Source: Escherichia coli
Lineage (GTDB): Bacteria; Pseudomonadota; Gammaproteobacteria; Enterobacterales; Enterobacteriaceae
Assembly: GCF_044324875.1 (NCBI RefSeq)
Contig: NZ_CP172188.1
Length of the DNA stretch: 64,000 bases
Direction: 5' to 3' (one strand)
The translations under genes were made by a program, and so were the position numbers. The stretch's first letter is position 1; each line of letters begins with the position of its first letter. Below, piece by piece: positions 9,963-63,778 of the stretch. Under the pieces are notes generated by a model. The model ran no database searches. It had not been told where the DNA came from and saw only the letters and a list, made by a program, of their open reading frames with translations.

Positions 9963-9980
9963 ATGTTAGAAAACTAATTT
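9963..9980 (+). promoter_or_regulatory. operator-like motif copy (ATGTTAGAAAACTAATTT)
   Basis: Consensus copy directly upstream of the 10004..11212 CDS. Confidence 0.5.
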
Positions 9981-12451: not shown

Positions 12452-12528
12452 GATGGTGTAGCTCAGTAGGATAGAGCAGCAGCCTTCTAAGCTGTCGGTC
12501 GGTGGTTCGAATCCACCCACCATCGCCA
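12452..12528 (+). tRNA. tRNA-Arg (anticodon TCT)
   Basis: 77 nt; 7-bp acceptor stem GATGGTG/CACCATC, D-arm GCTC..GAGC, anticodon loop CTTCTAA, T-arm GGTGG TTCGAAT CCACC, encoded CCA. Confidence 0.9.
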
Positions 12529-12530
12529 AT

Positions 12531-12606
12531 GCCGGTTTAGCTCAGTTGGTAGAGCGCCTGCCTTGTAAGCAGGATGTCAGCGGTTCGAGTCCGTTAACCG
12601 GCACCA
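12531..12606 (+). tRNA. tRNA-Thr (anticodon TGT)
   Basis: 76 nt; acceptor GCCGGTT/AACCGGC, anticodon loop CTTGTAA, T-loop TTCGAGT, encoded CCA; P1 also carries a tRNA-Thr. Confidence 0.9.
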
Positions 12607-13561: not shown

Positions 13562-13637
13562 GGCCCTTTAGCTCAGTGGTTAGAGCTGGCGACTCATAAT
13601 CGCACGGTCACCGGTTCAAGTCCGGTAGGGGCCACCA
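13562..13637 (+). tRNA. tRNA with CAT anticodon, most likely tRNA-Ile2 (lysidine type) rather than elongator Met
   Basis: 76 nt; GGCCCTT acceptor, anticodon loop CTCATAA, T-loop TTCAAGT; resembles enterobacterial ileX-type tRNA as I recall it; P1 also encodes a tRNA-Ile. Confidence 0.85.
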
Positions 13638-18453: not shown

Positions 18454-19491
18454 TTACCAGAGTTTAGCGGCGTGCTGTGTTTGGGAGAAAGTGAACCCGT
18501 AACGTTCTTCTATGGTTTTACCGTATCTTTTCCGCGCGTCTGTCAGTTTTATGCCTGTCAGGTCATCTCCGGATGTCATCATTACGTCTAACAACTCCAG
18601 ATCCATTTTATTCAGTCGCGCCATCGCTTCGCGTGCTGTCTGTATTTTACGCTCAATGATATGGCGAATAGCCGGATCGGCTTCCTCAAGCATTTTGGCT
18701 GATTTGTTCTTTAAGCTCTCATTGCGGATGTCGATGTTTCGCAAGATGTATGACTTCGCAACATAGCTTGGTTGGTGTTTCTCCAGATCGCGAACGCGAT
18801 AGAGACTAAAGTCACCAAGCAGGCCGCAAGGTATCGACTCAACCCCAGAATAAATAGTAATGCTGCGACGTTCGCCGACATTATTAACAACGGGCACTGT
18901 GGTGTTCGGAAGTTTTGCGAACACTAAGGCTCCGTGTGCGCCTACCCTGAATCGTGACAGAGCATTGCTGCCTTCAATGTTTGTTGTAAGCACTACATCT
19001 GTGTATCCATCTTTGCGCGCCCGGTAAACTTCCCCTTCAGGTTCTGATGCGAAAAAACGGCGCTCTTCTTCAAGTGCACCAACAATCTGCGAAAATATCT
19101 TGTTTTTCAGGCTTTTCTTTATAATTGCATCATATTTTTTGAGCAGATTTTCGCGCGTAAATGAGCGGGTGGTGGTCGCGCTTTGCACAACAATATGCGT
19201 GCTTTGATTTGTGTCCTCGATAATGAATGGGATCGGAGAATATACAGACTCAACAATGTTAGACGCTTTGCCGTCAGCGTTACGGCACAAGTCAACAAAG
19301 GCTTTCCATTCTGTGAGGCACTTTTCAGCTTCTTCTAGCACATTCTGATCATGTGTTAGTGCAACATGGCGGAATTCCTCGCCGGCATAACTGGTATCAT
19401 GGAAAACAGAGTTTGCGACCACCAGCTCTTTCCACCGTTCAGCGGTTTGCAGGAACCGTTTGTACTCTTTCTCGATCGACTTCTTACTCAT
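18454..19491 (-). CDS. candidate C1-like master repressor (by position and operator cluster; sequence not confirmed)
   Basis: 345 aa; convergent with pacB as c1 is in P1; its upstream region 19504..19700 carries 2-3 operator-like motifs. Confidence 0.35.
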   Translation of the reverse strand: MSKKSIEKEYKRFLQTAERWKELVVANSVFHDTSYAGEEFRHVALTHDQNVLEEAEKCLTEWKAFVDLCRNADGKASNIVESVYSPIPFIIEDTNQSTHIVVQSATTTRSFTRENLLKKYDAIIKKSLKNKIFSQIVGALEEERRFFASEPEGEVYRARKDGYTDVVLTTNIEGSNALSRFRVGAHGALVFAKLPNTTVPVVNNVGERRSITIYSGVESIPCGLLGDFSLYRVRDLEKHQPSYVAKSYILRNIDIRNESLKNKSAKMLEEADPAIRHIIERKIQTAREAMARLNKMDLELLDVMMTSGDDLTGIKLTDARKRYGKTIEERYGFTFSQTQHAAKLW

Positions 19492-19503
19492 TATTCCTAC
19501 TCG

Positions 19504-19520
19504 ATTTAGTTTTCTAACAT
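19504..19520 (-). promoter_or_regulatory. operator-like motif copy (reverse strand ATGTTAGAAAACTAAAT)
   Basis: 13 nt upstream of the candidate repressor start codon. Confidence 0.5.
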
Positions 19521-38139: not shown

Positions 38140-38430
38140 GGCATTATCGTGGGGTATATTTCTACGGCACCTTAGAAAAACGGGTGCCGGGATTGGAACC
38201 CCGGATAATGCAAAAGGCGACACAGACGCCGAAAGCGTCTTTTCTTGTGTCATGCCATCGCACAGCCATACGTAGCGTTTAGCTCAGAGATCAATGGTAG
38301 TGCTGGCTGGGCTGCCGAAAGGCAGGCCGGTTCCCTTTTGCGCCGGTAGTTCCAACCCAGTCAGTGCTACCGCCATTGAGATTGGAACCTCACGCGGTAG
38401 CTCCTTAAATTAGCAAAAGGAGGCTGCCAA
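38140..38430 (+). ncRNA. candidate c4-like antisense RNA / leader region of immunity module A
   Basis: Structured leader upstream of the icd-like gene: direct repeats GATTGGAACC (38192, 38383) and a partly complementary GTTCCAACC (38346); hairpin GACGCCGAAAGCGTC + T-run near 38223. Confidence 0.3.
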
Positions 38431-38431
38431 T

Positions 38432-38647
38432 ATGGCTACTATCCCTACCCCAACTCATTCTGAATTTATCTGGCGTTTCTATTCCTGCCAAAAACACCTG
38501 TATATCTGCGTCATGGCTGCAACCGAAGCAGAAGCTCGTTCATACCTTCCTGAAGAACCCTGCATTTTTGCCGCACGCTTCACTCTTGATGCGATGGAGA
38601 TCCTCAATTACTGGAATCTGCCAATGAACTGCGTGGAGGTGCACTGA
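38432..38647 (+). CDS. Icd-like small protein (module A)
   Basis: 71 aa; paralog of 62161..62385 (shared SEFIWRF, QKH, AATE-EARS); stop overlaps ant start (TGATG) as for icd-ant coupling in P1. Confidence 0.5.
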   Translation: MATIPTPTHSEFIWRFYSCQKHLYICVMAATEAEARSYLPEEPCIFAARFTLDAMEILNYWNLPMNCVEVH

Positions 38648-39588
38648 TGAATCTGTCCATCTCTCAAAAAGCGACAATGACCAGCATTGAGATCGCGGAA
38701 CTGGTAGGAAGTCGCCAAGATAGTGTGAAGAGAACTATCGAAACACTGGCTAAAAAGAGTGTGATCCAATTTCCACAATCTGTGGAAATTGAAAATAAAC
38801 AATCAGTTGGCCCTCGTCGATTTTCCAAGGCTTACATCTTTGAAGGCGAACAAGGCAAGCGCGATAGTATCATTGTCGTCGCACAGCTCTCTCCGGAATT
38901 CACCGCCCGGCTGGTGGACCGCTGGCGCGAACTGGAGAATGCCAGGGGACCGTTAAAATCAAAAGCCGAAATCCTGGCTGAAATGGCGCAAATGCATCTT
39001 GAGCATGAACGCCGGATCAACGCCGTAAATGCCCAGGTAGCCGAGGTATCAGCACAAGTATCGATGGTCGCTGAAACACTCGAGCAAATAAAGAAAGGCA
39101 ATATGCCGGAAGGCTACATTGGCTACCGCCAGCTGGCGGCGAAATGCGGCCTGACTGAAGCCAAATGTCGCAACCTGGTTAACGCTTACCGGATACCCAC
39201 TGATACGCATGAGTTTTTGACTCCCGACGGTTTGCTTGCGCGACGCTCAATTGTGGCCCTGGCCCCCTTCCGGAAAGCCTTTAAGCAGGTTATGTCGGAG
39301 GCAGAACCACGCAACAAACGCTGGTATCATCCAAAGATGGGGATGTTTCAGGCAATCCACCATCCTGTGCCTGAAAGTCCAAAGGCAAACCTGTCGTTGC
39401 ATACCGCCAGAGAGAGGATTAAAACAGGGTATGCAATCGTATGCCGTCGAGCATCTTGGCCTGAAGGTGTATGGGTATGGCCCGAAGGTGGATCACGAAA
39501 GCACTGGCGCACTATCCGGGATGGGAAAATCCATGCGATTGATTTAGCTCCAGAGGATGTTGTTGCTACGGACTGGATTGTTAGTTAA
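38647..39588 (+). CDS. antirepressor-like protein: Rha-family N-terminal domain fused to DUF2829/Tad2-like C-terminal domain (module A)
   Basis: 313 aa; N-terminal MTSIEIAELVGSRQDSVKRTIE; C-terminal CRRASWPEGVWVWPEGG ... DLAPEDVVATDWIVS. Confidence 0.65.
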   Translation: MNLSISQKATMTSIEIAELVGSRQDSVKRTIETLAKKSVIQFPQSVEIENKQSVGPRRFSKAYIFEGEQGKRDSIIVVAQLSPEFTARLVDRWRELENARGPLKSKAEILAEMAQMHLEHERRINAVNAQVAEVSAQVSMVAETLEQIKKGNMPEGYIGYRQLAAKCGLTEAKCRNLVNAYRIPTDTHEFLTPDGLLARRSIVALAPFRKAFKQVMSEAEPRNKRWYHPKMGMFQAIHHPVPESPKANLSLHTARERIKTGYAIVCRRASWPEGVWVWPEGGSRKHWRTIRDGKIHAIDLAPEDVVATDWIVS

Positions 39589-61104: not shown

Positions 61105-61159
61105 AAACACCACTTAGGCACACAAAAGGATGTATATTGGTACATGTTTAACACCAAAA

Positions 61160-61633
61160 ATGAACCTGAAGAGGATGGTTTTGAAAAAGATAATTTTGAT
61201 TGTAATTGCGCTTTTAGCCATTTCTGGAATTTACCGAACAACGACGGCAGTTATCGAACACATCAGGTATGTCCGATCGCTTGAAGACTCAAAATCACAA
61301 CTGGAAAGCACGAACAACACGCTTTCTACCGCATTACAGTTAAGTGAGAACGCTCGCTCAGCCATGCTGACCGAAAACGAAAGAATTAAAGCACTGGAAA
61401 AGGAGTACCAGCGCAAAACAGCAGAACTGAATGCCAACCTAATCAAACAACGAGAGGAAAGCCAGAATGAAATCACTCGCCTTGAAAATGCGTTGCGCCG
61501 TGCTGGGATTAACGATGTGCGTGTGCCTGATGACGTTATCAGGATGCAGCGGGAACGGGCAAAAGCCATCAACCAGCGTGCCAGTGAAAATTACCGTAGA
61601 AGCCACCAGCAAGCCGCAGGCAAATCTGATTGA
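61160..61633 (+). CDS. i-spanin (Rz-like): N-terminal TM anchor + periplasmic coiled-coil
   Basis: ORF 61130..61633; KKIILIVIALLAISGIY then coiled-coil. Confidence 0.6.
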   Translation: MNLKRMVLKKIILIVIALLAISGIYRTTTAVIEHIRYVRSLEDSKSQLESTNNTLSTALQLSENARSAMLTENERIKALEKEYQRKTAELNANLIKQREESQNEITRLENALRRAGINDVRVPDDVIRMQRERAKAINQRASENYRRSHQQAAGKSD

Positions 61634-61793
61634 TTACTCCCCTTGTTTAGTGCCAGAGGACACGCCAGTGCTGTTAAACAAGTATCCGACATACGCTGAA
61701 CAGTTATTCAGCACGATCGACGAATGCAACCAACGAAACGCACTGAATAACCAAAGAAACAGGGAGATTTGGGAAGGGAAGGGGCGGCAGTGA
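61467..61793 (+). CDS. o-spanin (Rz1-like lipoprotein), overlapping the i-spanin in the +1 frame
   Basis: Lipobox LTMCVCLMTLSGCSG; starts inside the i-spanin gene and extends past its stop. Confidence 0.6.
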   Translation: MKSLALKMRCAVLGLTMCVCLMTLSGCSGNGQKPSTSVPVKITVEATSKPQANLIDYSPCLVPEDTPVLLNKYPTYAEQLFSTIDECNQRNALNNQRNREIWEGKGRQ

Positions 61794-61820: not shown

Positions 61821-61838
61821 ATGTTAGAAAAATAATTT
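61821..61838 (+). promoter_or_regulatory. operator-like motif copy (ATGTTAGAAAAATAATTT), candidate control site of immunity module B
   Basis: Consensus copy ~100 nt upstream of the c4-like leader. Confidence 0.5.
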
Positions 61839-61899
61839 GAATTTTCGAACATAAACAATAAAATAAATCATCAAAAATTTGATGTTGATCTTCCATGTT

Positions 61900-62160
61900 T
61901 TCAGGCTTATATTCACGCCGTTGCAGCAAATTCTGCGACCGGGTTTAGCAGCCTGAATGTACATGCGGACAACCGCAGATATCCGATATTGCGGTATTTT
62001 TGTGTCCGTAAAACCATGTTACGCCCGAATTATGGTGGGGCGTGATGGGGAGGCTTCGGCCTGCTGGTTTCATGTACGCCAGTCTGCTAACCCCGTCACG
62101 TCCTGCCACCCGTTTAGCAGCGGGTAGCAGGTTGTTAAACCTGTACATGAGGCCGTAACT
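61900..62160 (+). ncRNA. candidate c4-like antisense RNA locus of immunity module B
   Basis: Paired elements a=TTTAGCAG and b=GTACATG occur at 61945/61958 and again at 62112/62141; complements (CATGTAC at 62066, CTGCTAA at 62085) lie between in reversed order. Confidence 0.35.
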
Positions 62161-62385
62161 ATGGTTAATGCCAATCCTTGCTCACGTCCAGAATTCATCT
62201 GGCGTTTTCACTCCCTGCAAAAACACTGCGATCACTTCGCAATTGCCGCAACTGAAAAAGAAGCCCGTTCTCTGATCCCTGATCAGTATGGTGTTCTTAC
62301 TGGTCGTTTCTCTACTTCCCCACAACCAAACACTAATCCCTGGTATCGCAATATTACCAATCCCGGAATTGCGGAGGCACACTGA
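62161..62385 (+). CDS. Icd-like small protein (module B)
   Basis: 74 aa; paralog of 38432..38647; stop overlaps ant start (TGATG). Confidence 0.5.
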   Translation: MVNANPCSRPEFIWRFHSLQKHCDHFAIAATEKEARSLIPDQYGVLTGRFSTSPQPNTNPWYRNITNPGIAEAH

Positions 62386-63305
62386 TGGATATCTGCATTC
62401 TTGAAAAGCCATCAATGACCAGCATTGAGATCGCGGAGCTGGTGGGAAGTCGTCCAGATAACGTAAAAATATCAATAGAGCGCCTGGCTAAATCTGGAGT
62501 TATTCAACTTCCTGCATTGCAGGTTTTCGAAAAAATCAATAACTTAGGACTACGCCGTAGTGTCGAGGCTTACGTCTTCGAAGGCGAGCAAGGCAAACGA
62601 GACAGCATTATTGTCGTTGCGCAGCTCTCTCCCGAATTCACCGCCCGGCTGGTGGACCGCTGGCGCGAACTGGAAGAACAAGTACGCCAGCCGTTGACCG
62701 AAATAGAGATGATCGCCGCAATGGCTGCAAATGCAGTTCAGCAGCAAAAGCGGCTTCATGTTGTTGAGTCAAAGGTTAGCCAGGTTGCTGAAACCGTCGA
62801 GCAGATCAAGAAGGGCAACATGCCAGAAGGTTACATTGGCTACCGCCAGCTGGCGGCGAAATGTGGCCTGACTGAAGCCAAATGTCGCAACCTGGTTAAC
62901 GCTTTCCGGATTCCCACCGATACGCATGAGTTTTTAACTCCAGATGGTTTGCTTGCGCGACGCTCCATTGTGGCCCTGGCCCCCTTCCGGAAAGCCTTTA
63001 AGCAGGTGATGTCGGAGGCAGAACCACGCAACAAACGCTGGTATCATCCGAAGATGGGGCTGTTTCAGGCAATCCATCATCCTGTGCCTGAAAGCCCAAA
63101 GGATAATCTGTCACTACATACCGTCAGAGAGAAGATCAGGACTGGATACGCAACAGTGTGTCGTCGTTCTTCCTGGCCTGAAGGTATATGGGTGTGGCCC
63201 GAAGGTGGATCACGAAAGCACTGGCGCACTATCCGGGACGGGAAAATCCATGCTATTGATTTAGCGCCAGAGGATATTGTTGCTACGGACTGGATTGTTA
63301 GTTAA
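62385..63305 (+). CDS. antirepressor-like protein: Rha-family N-terminal domain fused to DUF2829/Tad2-like domain (module B)
   Basis: 306 aa; N-terminal 60 aa and middle linker differ from module A, C-terminal 200 aa nearly identical. Confidence 0.65.
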   Translation: MDICILEKPSMTSIEIAELVGSRPDNVKISIERLAKSGVIQLPALQVFEKINNLGLRRSVEAYVFEGEQGKRDSIIVVAQLSPEFTARLVDRWRELEEQVRQPLTEIEMIAAMAANAVQQQKRLHVVESKVSQVAETVEQIKKGNMPEGYIGYRQLAAKCGLTEAKCRNLVNAFRIPTDTHEFLTPDGLLARRSIVALAPFRKAFKQVMSEAEPRNKRWYHPKMGLFQAIHHPVPESPKDNLSLHTVREKIRTGYATVCRRSSWPEGIWVWPEGGSRKHWRTIRDGKIHAIDLAPEDIVATDWIVS

Positions 63306-63313
63306 TTACTGTT

Positions 63314-63336
63314 GCCCCGGCCTGTCCGGGGCTTTC
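63314..63336. terminator. terminator hairpin
   Basis: GCCCCGGCCTGTCCGGGGCTTTCG. Confidence 0.55.
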
Positions 63337-63340
63337 GTGA

Positions 63341-63745
63341 CTAAAAATCTGTTCGCTGTCGCCATGCGTTTTTTAACTCAGGAATATCCGCCATTTCAAT
63401 TAACTTGCGAAGTCCAGCACTGACTTTCCCATTGCCAACCATAGCAAGCCAATCTCTTACAGCTTTCGGCATGTAGAGCGTTGCAGTTACCGGCTCTTCA
63501 ACCCTGGCAGGACATCCGCATACAGGCCATTTAATTGATTCCATAACTTCGGATGCCGGGGTGAGGGCGGGGACATTGAGTATATCTCTACCAGAAAACT
63601 GGATAACGATCCGTTCAGCGAGCGAGAGTATCTCACTTTCGGCAAGAATTGATGCCAACTGCGCCTCAACAAGAAAGCGACTTGTTGTGTTCAGAGAGTG
63701 GCTCTTAGCGCCATTTTTATACGAAACAAAGATTCGATACGCCAT
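63341..63745 (-). CDS. hypothetical protein
   Basis: 134-aa ORF; operator-like motif just upstream of its start. Confidence 0.45.
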   Translation of the reverse strand: MAYRIFVSYKNGAKSHSLNTTSRFLVEAQLASILAESEILSLAERIVIQFSGRDILNVPALTPASEVMESIKWPVCGCPARVEEPVTATLYMPKAVRDWLAMVGNGKVSAGLRKLIEMADIPELKNAWRQRTDF

Positions 63746-63758
63746 AACTCTAATGATT

Positions 63759-63778
63759 TGTGTTAGAAAACTAAAATT
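63759..63778 (+). promoter_or_regulatory. operator-like motif copy (TGTGTTAGAAAACTAAAATT)
   Basis: 14 nt upstream of the 63341..63745 start. Confidence 0.5.

Follow-up and report, generated by a model that had tools for sequence, protein, structure and literature searches.

Positions 61821-63336 of the 64-kb stretch of DNA analysed here (the window) hold a well-preserved copy of the immI switch of P1, P7 and D6, referred to below as module B; it adds one more case to a system already known and leaves unchanged the understanding of its mechanism, which was established in P1 and P7 during the 1990s. We put the probability that the whole module is a functional immI-type switch within a D6-like plasmid prophage at roughly 0.88. 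The features that mark a D6-like immI are present together: c4, icd, a Roi-like ant, an operator motif of the D6 type and a D6-like backbone, the 25 kb ending in module B matching D6-like plasmids of Escherichia coli and Salmonella at 95-96% identity, with 77-81% of the length covered. A sequence-only reading of this DNA had proposed a P1 immI-like layout of operator, c4, icd and ant. The layout is borne out by the leader, which aligns base for base with the annotated immI leaders of P1 and P7; from P51b into icd (61900-62272) nucleotide identity to the P1 and P7 immI regions is about 88%, and when the P1 features P51b, a1, b1, C4, a2, b2 and the icd ATG are transferred column by column, they land on equivalent sequence. 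As for the parts named, c4, icd and a repeated operator motif are present, but the operator is not that of P1 and the ant product is unrelated to P1 Ant1/2.

The upstream end of the module carries a palindromic operator-like site, GTTAGAAAAATAATTTGAATTTTCGAAC (61823-61850, + strand), that matches GTTAGA-N16-TCTAAC. With at most one mismatch allowed, five copies of this pattern occur in the window against 0.14 expected; the half-site motif TGTTAGAAAANTAATTT is found 14 times against 0.75 expected, one copy lying directly upstream of the gene for the window's very distant C1 homologue (18781-19473, - strand; 20% identity, E 8e-6). The P1 operator consensus ATTGCTCTAATAAATTT has no match in the 64-kb window with up to three mismatches, and the idea that P1 Op51 itself is conserved was dropped because of this; the other, dispersed motif takes the position equivalent to that of the P1 C1 operator. 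The operator claimed earlier thus stands as a real, over-represented repeated motif and falls as a P1 operator: it is of the D6 type, not Op51. Of the related loci, 22 carry a D6-type motif upstream of c4 and 83 carry the P1-type operator there. Judged by its sequence, 61823-61850 is probably the binding site of a C1-type repressor of the prophage.

Two promoter-like sites follow on the + strand. A consensus scan places the upstream one (TTGAAT, 16-nt spacer, TAAAAT) at 61837-61864, with its -35 hexamer inside the operator, the same geometry as that of P1 P2c4/P51a with Op51. The second (TTGATC, 17-nt spacer, TATATT; 61885-61913) was called by the scan and by alignment with P1, where its hexamers coincide with the annotated -35 and -10, making it the positional homologue of P1c4/P51b; its transcript is expected to start at about 61920. 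Matches to the promoter consensus are not significant by count (four found, 2.6 expected), nor is the promoter and terminator scan as a whole (four found, 2.6 and 2.5 expected), and the two putative promoters draw their support mainly from the alignment with the P1 annotation.

The leader is matched by two Rfam models on the + strand. The c4-a1b1 motif (RF03163), which covers the leader with a1 and b1, matches 61907-61959 over model positions 1-53 of 53 with 53.5 bits (E 1.1e-10; gathering threshold 46.7 bits), and the C4 antisense RNA (RF01695) matches 62028-62113 over model positions 1-87 of 87 with 71.7 bits (E 5.3e-12; gathering threshold 45 bits), so the covariance-model search that had been suggested as a check for c4 comes out positive with both. 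Within the leader, a1, TTTAGCAG, lies at 61944-61951 (pairing part 61945-61951) and b1, GTACATG, at 61959-61965, each as an exact match on the + strand. The predicted mature C4 is a 77-nt RNA at 62034-62110 (+ strand), its ends transferred from the P1 misc_RNA annotation, with a minimum free energy of -44.9 kcal/mol (z -4.88). The recognition element b', UCAUGUAC (62070-62077, + strand), sits in a 9-nt hairpin loop with a mean unpaired probability of 0.75, and its 7-nt core CATGTAC (CAUGUAC in the RNA; 62071-62077) is found once in the 64-kb window; a', CTGCTAA (CUGCUAA; 62084-62090, + strand), occupies a 7-nt single-stranded junction with a mean unpaired probability of 0.85. Both are unpaired in the minimum-energy and centroid folds alike, and the predicted structure is that of a stable C4 that presents its two recognition elements. 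Seven differences separate this RNA from P1 C4: b' accounts for four, a' for two and a stem for one, where G-C replaces G-U; the remainder of the body, both ends included, is that of P1. The 5' end of P1 C4 is cut by RNase P. By analogy with P1, C4 of module B would be expressed and processed, and excised as a stable 77-nt RNA that acts in trans.

Downstream of C4, and also on the + strand, the target site a2 (TTTAGCAG; 62113-62120, pairing part 62114-62120) is an exact match, and b2 (GTACATGA; 62143-62150) overlaps the icd Shine-Dalgarno sequence GAGG at 62149-62152, which is separated from the icd ATG by 8 nt. The order along the leader is a1-b1, b'-a', a2-b2, and the short elements that had been picked out by eye, with their complements in reversed order between them, are all in place, including the 7-nt b2 copy GTACATG at 62143-62149. 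Their lengths need adjustment. The a pairing is 7 nt (TTAGCAG with CTGCTAA), CTGCTAAA being absent, and the b'-b2 pairing is longer than had been described, at 8 nt (UCAUGUAC at 62070-62077 with GUACAUGA at 62143-62150). In 5000 dinucleotide-preserving shuffles of 61920-62165, a single 7-mer triple of the forward/reverse-complement/forward kind arose in 46, and two distinct triples arose in none (0/5000), so that the complementarity exceeds chance, as the shuffled control had been meant to decide. The cognate b'-b2 duplex of module B is predicted at -11.7 kcal/mol, against -1.8 to -7.9 kcal/mol for non-cognate b pairings; overall, cognate b duplexes lie at -11 to -12 kcal/mol and non-cognate ones at -8 kcal/mol or weaker.

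Covariation among related loci supports the same pairings. An exact 28-nt C4 core was used to gather 116 stretches from viral_contigs, of which 114 are full-length loci, with 36 distinct sequences available for covariation; because the loci were collected by an exact match to the core, that core is invariant and the sample consists of close relatives. Exact complements stand at a1, b1, a2 and b2 in 114/114 full-length loci, across 11 (b', a') combinations. In the 36 distinct sequences, b'-b2 is paired in 99.7% of cells with compensatory changes at 6 of 8 pairs, a'-a2 is 100% paired with such changes at 2 of 7, b1-b' is 100% paired (6 of 7) and a1-a' is 100% paired (2 of 7). When the partners are slid out of register, pairing drops to 25-52% from 99.7-100%. 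Variable columns are concentrated in the elements (24/42, against 14/193 elsewhere; p 2.6e-12). The population code comprises six b types and two a types, with 11 of the 12 combinations seen; module B combines a P7-type a with b = GUACAUG, a code that differs from those of P1, P7 and D6 and is common to five other viral contigs. Taken with the two Rfam matches above threshold and the unpaired a' and b', this covariation supports the C4-type antisense RNA of the sequence-only reading.

The same leader could in principle be read as a cis-only device, an attenuator in which a' and b' pair with a2/b2 or a1/b1 within one unprocessed transcript and no trans-acting RNA is made. In its favour, a'-a2 and b'-b2 are nested with each other and one molecule could accommodate both pairings; the 250-nt full leader has a stable predicted fold (-112 kcal/mol); and at the homologous isrK locus of Gifsy-1, translation is controlled by alternative structures of a single molecule (PMC4825925). 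We nevertheless regard this as highly improbable: outside the recognition elements the C4 body is that of P1 C4, the P1 RNA is annotated and cited as a processed 77-base trans-acting RNA, and the minimum-energy structure of the leader has C4 folded by itself, with a2 and b2 in separate small hairpins.

The two reading frames of the operon are present as claimed, and the Icd-like product is a family member. The icd-like gene (62161-62385, + strand; 74 aa) matches NCBIfam NF033153 phage_ICD_like with 40 bits (cut-off 25) and PHROG 1426 with E 5.7e-39, and its product shares 100% identity with D6 Icd and 57% with P1 Icd. Its stop codon shares one base with the ATG of ant (TGATG at 62383-62387), with GGAGG at 62373-62377 upstream of the ant start; from its sequence this overlap is recognizable as a translational coupling arrangement. 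The ant gene (62385-63305, + strand) encodes a Roi/Rha-type protein of 306 aa that matches PHROG 63 'anti-repressor Ant' with E 3.1e-64. Over residues 11-98 it shares 72-86% identity with Roi from HK022 and Stx phages, 230 residues align with D6 Ant at 86% identity, the C-terminal part is 47% identical to D6 orf17, and identity to the paralogue in module A, the second immI-type module of the window (38167-39588), is 76%. The match to Pfam Phage_pRha is weak (E 0.002), the Pfam Rha and HTH matches are sub-threshold, and NCBIfam gives no match. Related proteins are variously labelled 'Rha family transcriptional regulator', 'DNA-binding protein Roi', 'KilA' and 'anti-repressor'. The earlier identification of ant needs qualifying: a gene is present in the ant position, but its Roi/Rha-type product has no detectable similarity to P1 Ant1/2 (BLASTP against Ant1, E 0.5). 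The operon ends in a terminator-like hairpin, GCCCCGG-CCUGU-CCGGGGC followed by UUU (63314-63335, + strand; hairpin proper 63314-63332), called by its fold (-16.7 kcal/mol, z -3.3); the same hairpin also follows the ant gene of module A, and the consensus scan missed the one at 63314-63332 because its U tract is short.

What suggests an antirepressor role for Ant is the position of its gene and the labels of its relatives in databases. The RNA switch may work as described while the Roi/Rha-type protein, instead of antagonizing the C1-type repressor, binds DNA as a regulator with a different role in lytic growth; this reading bears on the final step of the main explanation alone, and we consider it possible, though unlikely. 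It would fit the lack of similarity to P1 Ant1, an N-terminal 90 residues that constitute a Roi/Rha DNA-binding domain, and the mixed annotations of the relatives, none of which has a solved structure (a sequence search of the PDB returned spurious matches only). An antirepressor is favoured instead by the PHROG 63 label (E 3e-64), by the location of the gene in the exact position of P1 ant under the same control by C4 and icd, and by Gifsy-1 anrP, which lies downstream of a homologous leader and drives prophage induction.

Elements, fold, homology, covariation and the overlap of icd with ant are all observed in module B itself, and we propose that they work together as follows. Transcription would start at two promoters, the upstream one overlapping the operator of a C1-type repressor and the downstream one being the counterpart of P51b. 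The leader transcript would hold the 77-nt, tRNA-acceptor-like structured C4 (62034-62110), whose P1 counterpart is cut out, and the RNA, once free, would expose b' UCAUGUAC in its hairpin loop and keep a' CUGCUAA single-stranded in a junction, from which they could pair in trans with a2 and b2 of operon transcripts. Since b2 overlaps the icd Shine-Dalgarno sequence, icd would go untranslated, and since ant starts on the icd stop codon, ant would go untranslated too. Rho-dependent polarity is part of immI control in P1, where an early stop of transcription adds to the translational block, and the same may hold here. Neither the cell-division inhibitor Icd nor the Roi/Rha-type 'Ant' would thus be expressed in a lysogen, and an incoming phage that shares the a/b code would likewise be repressed. 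RNA processing, action in trans, the translational block with polarity, the binding of repressor to operator and the antirepressor activity of the third product would all follow the precedent of P1.

The presence of module A raises the question of whether module B is a duplicate, redundant or in decay, whose complementarities are inherited relics. The window does hold two paralogous modules with Ant proteins 76% identical, and no identical copy of module B was found in phage, plasmid and E. coli genome collections, where the best public match has 93.8% identity over 74% of the query. Yet neither ORF is disrupted, the six recognition elements all match perfectly, the promoter hexamers are conserved with P1, and modules A and B have different, mutually non-complementary a/b codes, as expected of two independently working switches rather than of decay; we give the duplicate explanation very little credence. 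Module A is orthogonal to module B, and the functional switch proposed above is the reading retained here.

A further suggestion concerns the a1/b1 leader, which may be a third working RNA part and not a passive duplicate of the target. Between b1 and C4 lies a terminator-like hairpin, CCGCAGAUAUCCGAUAUUGCGG followed by UAUUUUUGU (61972-62003, + strand; -8.6 kcal/mol, z -2.4), which is conserved in P1 and D6, has a competing hairpin at 61964-61977, and occupies the position of the IsrK terminator in module A and Gifsy-1. Because a1/b1 covary with C4 as fully as a2/b2 do, because this hairpin follows them, and given the precedent of Gifsy-1 IsrK, module B could be a three-RNA switch. In one version an a1b1 RNA of about 80 nt could act as an anti-antisense RNA that titrates C4; in the other, pairing of C4 at a1/b1 could set read-through into c4-icd-ant. 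We hold the idea to be doubtful; if true, it would place a three-RNA switch within a population-wide a/b code, one that lets two orthogonal modules coexist in a single prophage.

These assignments allow both module B and the paralogous module at 38.2-39.6 kb to be annotated as immI-type antisense immunity modules of a D6-like plasmid prophage, with exact coordinates for RNA and targets. Variation in the otherwise conserved leader falls almost wholly in two short recognition elements, each of which is present in three matched copies, and the at least 11 combinations offer a ready set of predicted orthogonal RNA repressor/target pairs. Many P1- and D6-like phage-plasmids bear resistance genes, and the element sequences allow a simple prediction of immI-type immunity groups among such phage-plasmids.

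Compared with known systems, module B shares with immI of P1 and P7 the operator over the upstream promoter, the second promoter, a1-b1, C4, a2-b2, icd and the next gene, a C4 of 77 nt whose loop carries b' and whose junction carries a', the placement of b2 at the icd ribosome-binding site and the overlap of icd with the following gene. In P1, C4 RNA represses Ant synthesis, and C1 and C4 together control the c4-icd-ant operon (PMC8546580, PMC8198154). The a element of P7 is identical to that of module B, whereas b is GUACAUG in module B, GUUAGUG in P1 and GAUUGUG in P7; the P1 operator consensus is unrelated in sequence, the third gene encodes Ant1/Ant2 in P1 and a Roi/Rha-type protein without an internal second start product here, and the neighbours differ, with spanin-like genes upstream and no kilA-repL downstream. 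We know of no activator role for a1/b1 in P1-type modules, whereas the short leader RNA of Gifsy-1 is a trans-acting activator. The Gifsy-1 isrK-orf45(STnc1160)-anrP locus of Salmonella resembles module B in its leader small RNA with a terminator, its processed RNA of about 80 nt complementary to the leader RNA and its short ORF, whose translation is coupled to that of an antirepressor-like gene; its terminated leader RNA, IsrK, turns translation on in trans (PMC4825925). The Rfam isrK model is matched by module A directly, while module B matches c4-a1b1 instead. The CI RNA of satellite phage P4, with seqA and seqC, works similarly, a likeness of mechanism: a small RNA is processed from its own operon's leader and pairs with complementary sites up- and downstream of itself (PMC4825925), although the reported outcome is premature transcription termination and not a block of the ribosome-binding site. 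The closest relative of module B is c4-icd-ant of D6 (NC_050154, gp108 and gp109), which is 89.7% identical over the module B stretch 61874-63069 and has the same type of operator motif. Its recognition elements differ (a = UUGACAG, b = ACUUACG), its module is located after repL, and the single 306-aa Ant of module B spans both D6 Ant and D6 orf17.

Module B, the unit at about 61821-63336, had been proposed to mirror the P1 immI operon, with a C4-type RNA drawn from its leader, and the analysis supports this immI-type reading. An Rfam scan of the whole window gave two matches in the module B region: the C4 antisense RNA (RF01695) at 62028-62113, scoring 71.7 bits (threshold 45), and the c4-a1b1 motif (RF03163) at 61907-61959, scoring 53.5 bits (threshold 46.7). 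By megablast, the best-matching phage genome is D6 (89.7% identical over 61874-63069), followed by P7, P1 and relatives with 87-91% identity over 61900-62272, a stretch that extends from promoter P51b into icd, covering its first half. The annotated leaders of P1, P7 and D6 were aligned to the window and the P1 features transferred column by column, which places P51b at 61885-61913 (TTGATC, 17 nt, TATATT), a predicted C4 of 77 nt at 62034-62110 and the icd ATG at 62161, and puts P1 a1, b1, a2 and b2 on the very elements picked out in the sequence-only reading. Departures of the predicted C4 from that of P1 are confined to four b' positions, two a' positions and one stem pair, where G-U has become G-C. 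The predicted RNA has a folding energy of -44.9 kcal/mol (z -4.88), which none of 200 shuffles equals; b' occupies a hairpin loop of 9 nt, and a' makes up the 7-nt junction.

All six elements lie where they had been placed. a1 and a2 (TTTAGCAG, 61944-61951 and 62113-62120), b1 and b2 (GTACATG, 61959-61965 and 62143-62149) and a' (CTGCTAA, 62084-62090) are exact matches, and b' (CATGTAC, 62071-62077) occurs only once in the 64-kb window. Their complementarity stands as claimed, except that the a pairing, with CTGCTAAA absent, extends over 7 nt instead of 8, and that b' and b2 pair over 8 nt (UCAUGUAC with GUACAUGA). Among 5000 shuffles of 61920-62165 that preserve dinucleotides, 46 contained one forward/complement/forward 7-mer triple and none contained two distinct ones; the complementarity, which might have proved no better than in shuffled controls, therefore exceeds chance. 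A 6-nt palindrome, UGUACA, lies inside the target sites of module B's b type (61958-61963 and 62142-62147), so b1 and b2 could pair with each other, also between two transcripts; the self-complementary tetramers CAUG and GUAC also occur within b', and the other b types are without this property.

The a element of the window is that of P7 (UUAGCAG), whereas P1 and D6 share UUGACAG; each of the four has a b element of its own, and within each phage b1, b' and b2 change together. Scanning IMG/VR with the invariant 28-nt C4 core retrieved 116 stretches, with 114 loci having full flanks, and in all 114 exact complements of the locus's own a' and b' occur both upstream and downstream. The full-flank loci display six b' types (CACAAUC, CACUAAC, CGUAAGU, CAUGUAC, CAUUCGU and CACAAGU) and two a' types (CUGCUAA and CUGUCAA; loci L004-L119) in 11 of 12 combinations, a combinatorial C4 recognition code of which we found no description in the searchable literature. 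In an alignment of 36 distinct sequences (A3), both sides have changed in 6 of 8 pairs of the b'-b2 helix (99.7% of cells paired), 2 of 7 of a'-a2, 6 of 7 of b1-b' and 2 of 7 of a1-a' (100% of cells paired in each of these three), and sliding the partner by 1-3 columns leaves merely 25-52% of cells paired. Variable columns make up 24 of 42 in the elements against 14 of 193 elsewhere (Fisher p 2.6e-12), 28 of those 193 being held invariant by the search pattern itself. Duplex energies fit a specificity code: among modules B and A, P1, P7 and D6, cognate b'-b2 pairing yields -11 to -12 kcal/mol, non-cognate pairing -8 or weaker. The combination found in the window, b' CAUGUAC with a' CUGCUAA, is common to five IMG/VR contigs, so the code is not unique to this element; twelve further contigs carry b' CAUGUAC with the other a'. 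The sole exception to the matching is L024 (4687-4921, minus strand), in which b' CAUUCGU and a matching b1 are accompanied by a P1-type b2, GUUAGUG. This is the pattern expected from a single crossover between two types, which predicts a target that C4 could no longer repress; the mismatch lies near the contig end, and an assembly chimera is possible.

The icd-like gene (62161-62385, plus strand; 74 aa) encodes a protein that matches D6 Icd at 100% identity and P1 Icd at 57%, and that passes the NCBIfam model phage_ICD_like (40 bits, cut-off 25). The icd TGA and the ant ATG overlap by one base (TGATG, 62383-62387) and GGAGG stands eight bases upstream of that ATG, which is the layout required for translational coupling. 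Following the P1 model, the leader would be transcribed and C4 cut out of the transcript, whereupon its b' loop and a' junction would pair in trans with b2 and a2, blocking the icd ribosome-binding site and keeping the coupled ant gene silent. In P1, C4 is processed by RNase P and Rho-dependent polarity operates within icd.

Ant (62385-63305, plus strand; 306 aa) matches PHROG 63, 'anti-repressor Ant' (E 3e-64), and gives only a weak Phage_pRha match in Pfam. The Roi/Rha DNA-binding domain of lambdoid phages occupies residues 11-98, and no similarity to P1 Ant1 is detectable (E 0.5); the name therefore denotes a positional analogue with a database label, not an orthologue of P1 ant1/ant2, and the product is a putative antirepressor. 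A solved structure was found for none of its relatives. The single ORF of the window spans what in D6 (L001:4510-5414) are two ORFs: Ant, of 235 aa (86% identity), and orf17, of 65 aa (47% identity; PHROG 7385). The D6 gene may be a split version. In module A, too, the paralogue is one ORF. The unit ends in a GC-rich hairpin whose U tract is short (63314-63335, -16.7 kcal/mol), and an identical hairpin lies 3' of the module A ant paralogue. Converging on the module B terminator is a 134-aa ORF (63341-63745, minus strand; PHROG 7830, E 8e-79), whose promoter-like site (63842-63813, minus strand) adjoins an operator-like motif copy at 63761-63777; a divergent ORF starts at about 63905 and runs past the window end.

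The leader contains a terminator-like hairpin with a U-run behind it (61972-62003, -8.6 kcal/mol), placed downstream of b1 and ahead of C4, and a competing hairpin lies upstream (61964-61977). Hairpin and U-run are kept in P1 and D6, and the hairpin has the same position as the IsrK terminator of Gifsy-1. There, the isrK leader RNA, ending at the equivalent terminator, activates translation of a downstream antirepressor-like gene in trans; its sequence complements that of a processed ~80-nt RNA located at the C4 position (PMC4825925). The hairpins at 61964-62003 suggest that the leader either gives a short a1b1 RNA or is controlled by attenuation. Since a1/b1 covary with C4 as fully as a2/b2, they are under selection, and they may titrate C4 or mediate feedback on read-through.

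The operator assigned to module B is supported as a site, but its sequence is not that of P1: nothing in the window fits the P1 C1 operator consensus, even with three mismatches allowed, and 61822-61838 (TGTTAGAAAAATAATTT) is instead a copy of a dispersed operator-like motif, RTGTTAGAAAAYTAATTT. This motif has 14 copies in the window against 0.75 expected (at 9964, 11215, 11371, 15072, 19503, 20904, 31445, 31458, 36964, 37614, 41389, 52770, 61822 and 63761), and its full-form palindrome, GTTAGA-N16-TCTAAC, has five against 0.14 expected, one of them at 61823-61850. The copy at 19503-19519 lies just upstream of the sole window ORF resembling P1 C1, a distant homologue (18781-19473, minus strand; 20% identity, E 8e-6), and the 14 copies are probably the regulon of a D6-type C1 repressor. 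Module B has a promoter-like site (61837-61864; TTGAAT, 16 nt, TAAAAT) whose -35 hexamer is overlapped by the motif; this is the geometry of Op51 over P51a in P1, and we infer that a repressor, presumably of different specificity, binds there. Upstream of c4 in related loci, the D6-type motif occurs in 22 and the P1-type operator in 83.

An overlapping gene pair just upstream of module B (61130-61633 and 61467-61793, plus strand) looks like an i-spanin/o-spanin pair: one ORF (167 aa) has an N-terminal hydrophobic segment, the second, read in another frame, is lipoprotein-like (108 aa, …LSGCSG), and both match Rz-like spanin families of PHROG. Three tRNA genes on the plus strand (12452-12525, 12531-12603 and 13562-13634; Rfam) are of a kind typical of P1- and D6-like phage-plasmids. 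The paralogous module A (38167-39588, plus strand) comprises an Rfam match to the isrK of Gifsy-1 (38167-38245), a C4 match (38290-38377, 76.7 bits in Rfam), an Icd-like ORF of 71 aa (38432-38647) and an Ant of 313 aa (38647-39588) sharing 76% identity with its module B counterpart, all on the plus strand. Its recognition code (a1/a2 AUUGGAAC, b1/b2 GCAAAAGG, b' CCUUUUGC and a' GUUCCAA, with b2 overlapping AAGGAGG) is unrelated to that of module B, and duplex energies predict no cross-talk between the two. A second c4/icd region in D6-like plasmids has already been reported (PMC6799933).

The 25 kb ending in module B are 95-96% identical to D6-like E. coli and Salmonella plasmids over 77-81% of their length, and phage, plasmid and complete E. 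coli genome records hold no identical module B, the best match covering 74% of the query at 93.8% identity. Module B would be unsurprising to a specialist: it is a D6-type immI module that combines a P7-type a element with a b element lacking in P1, P7 and D6.
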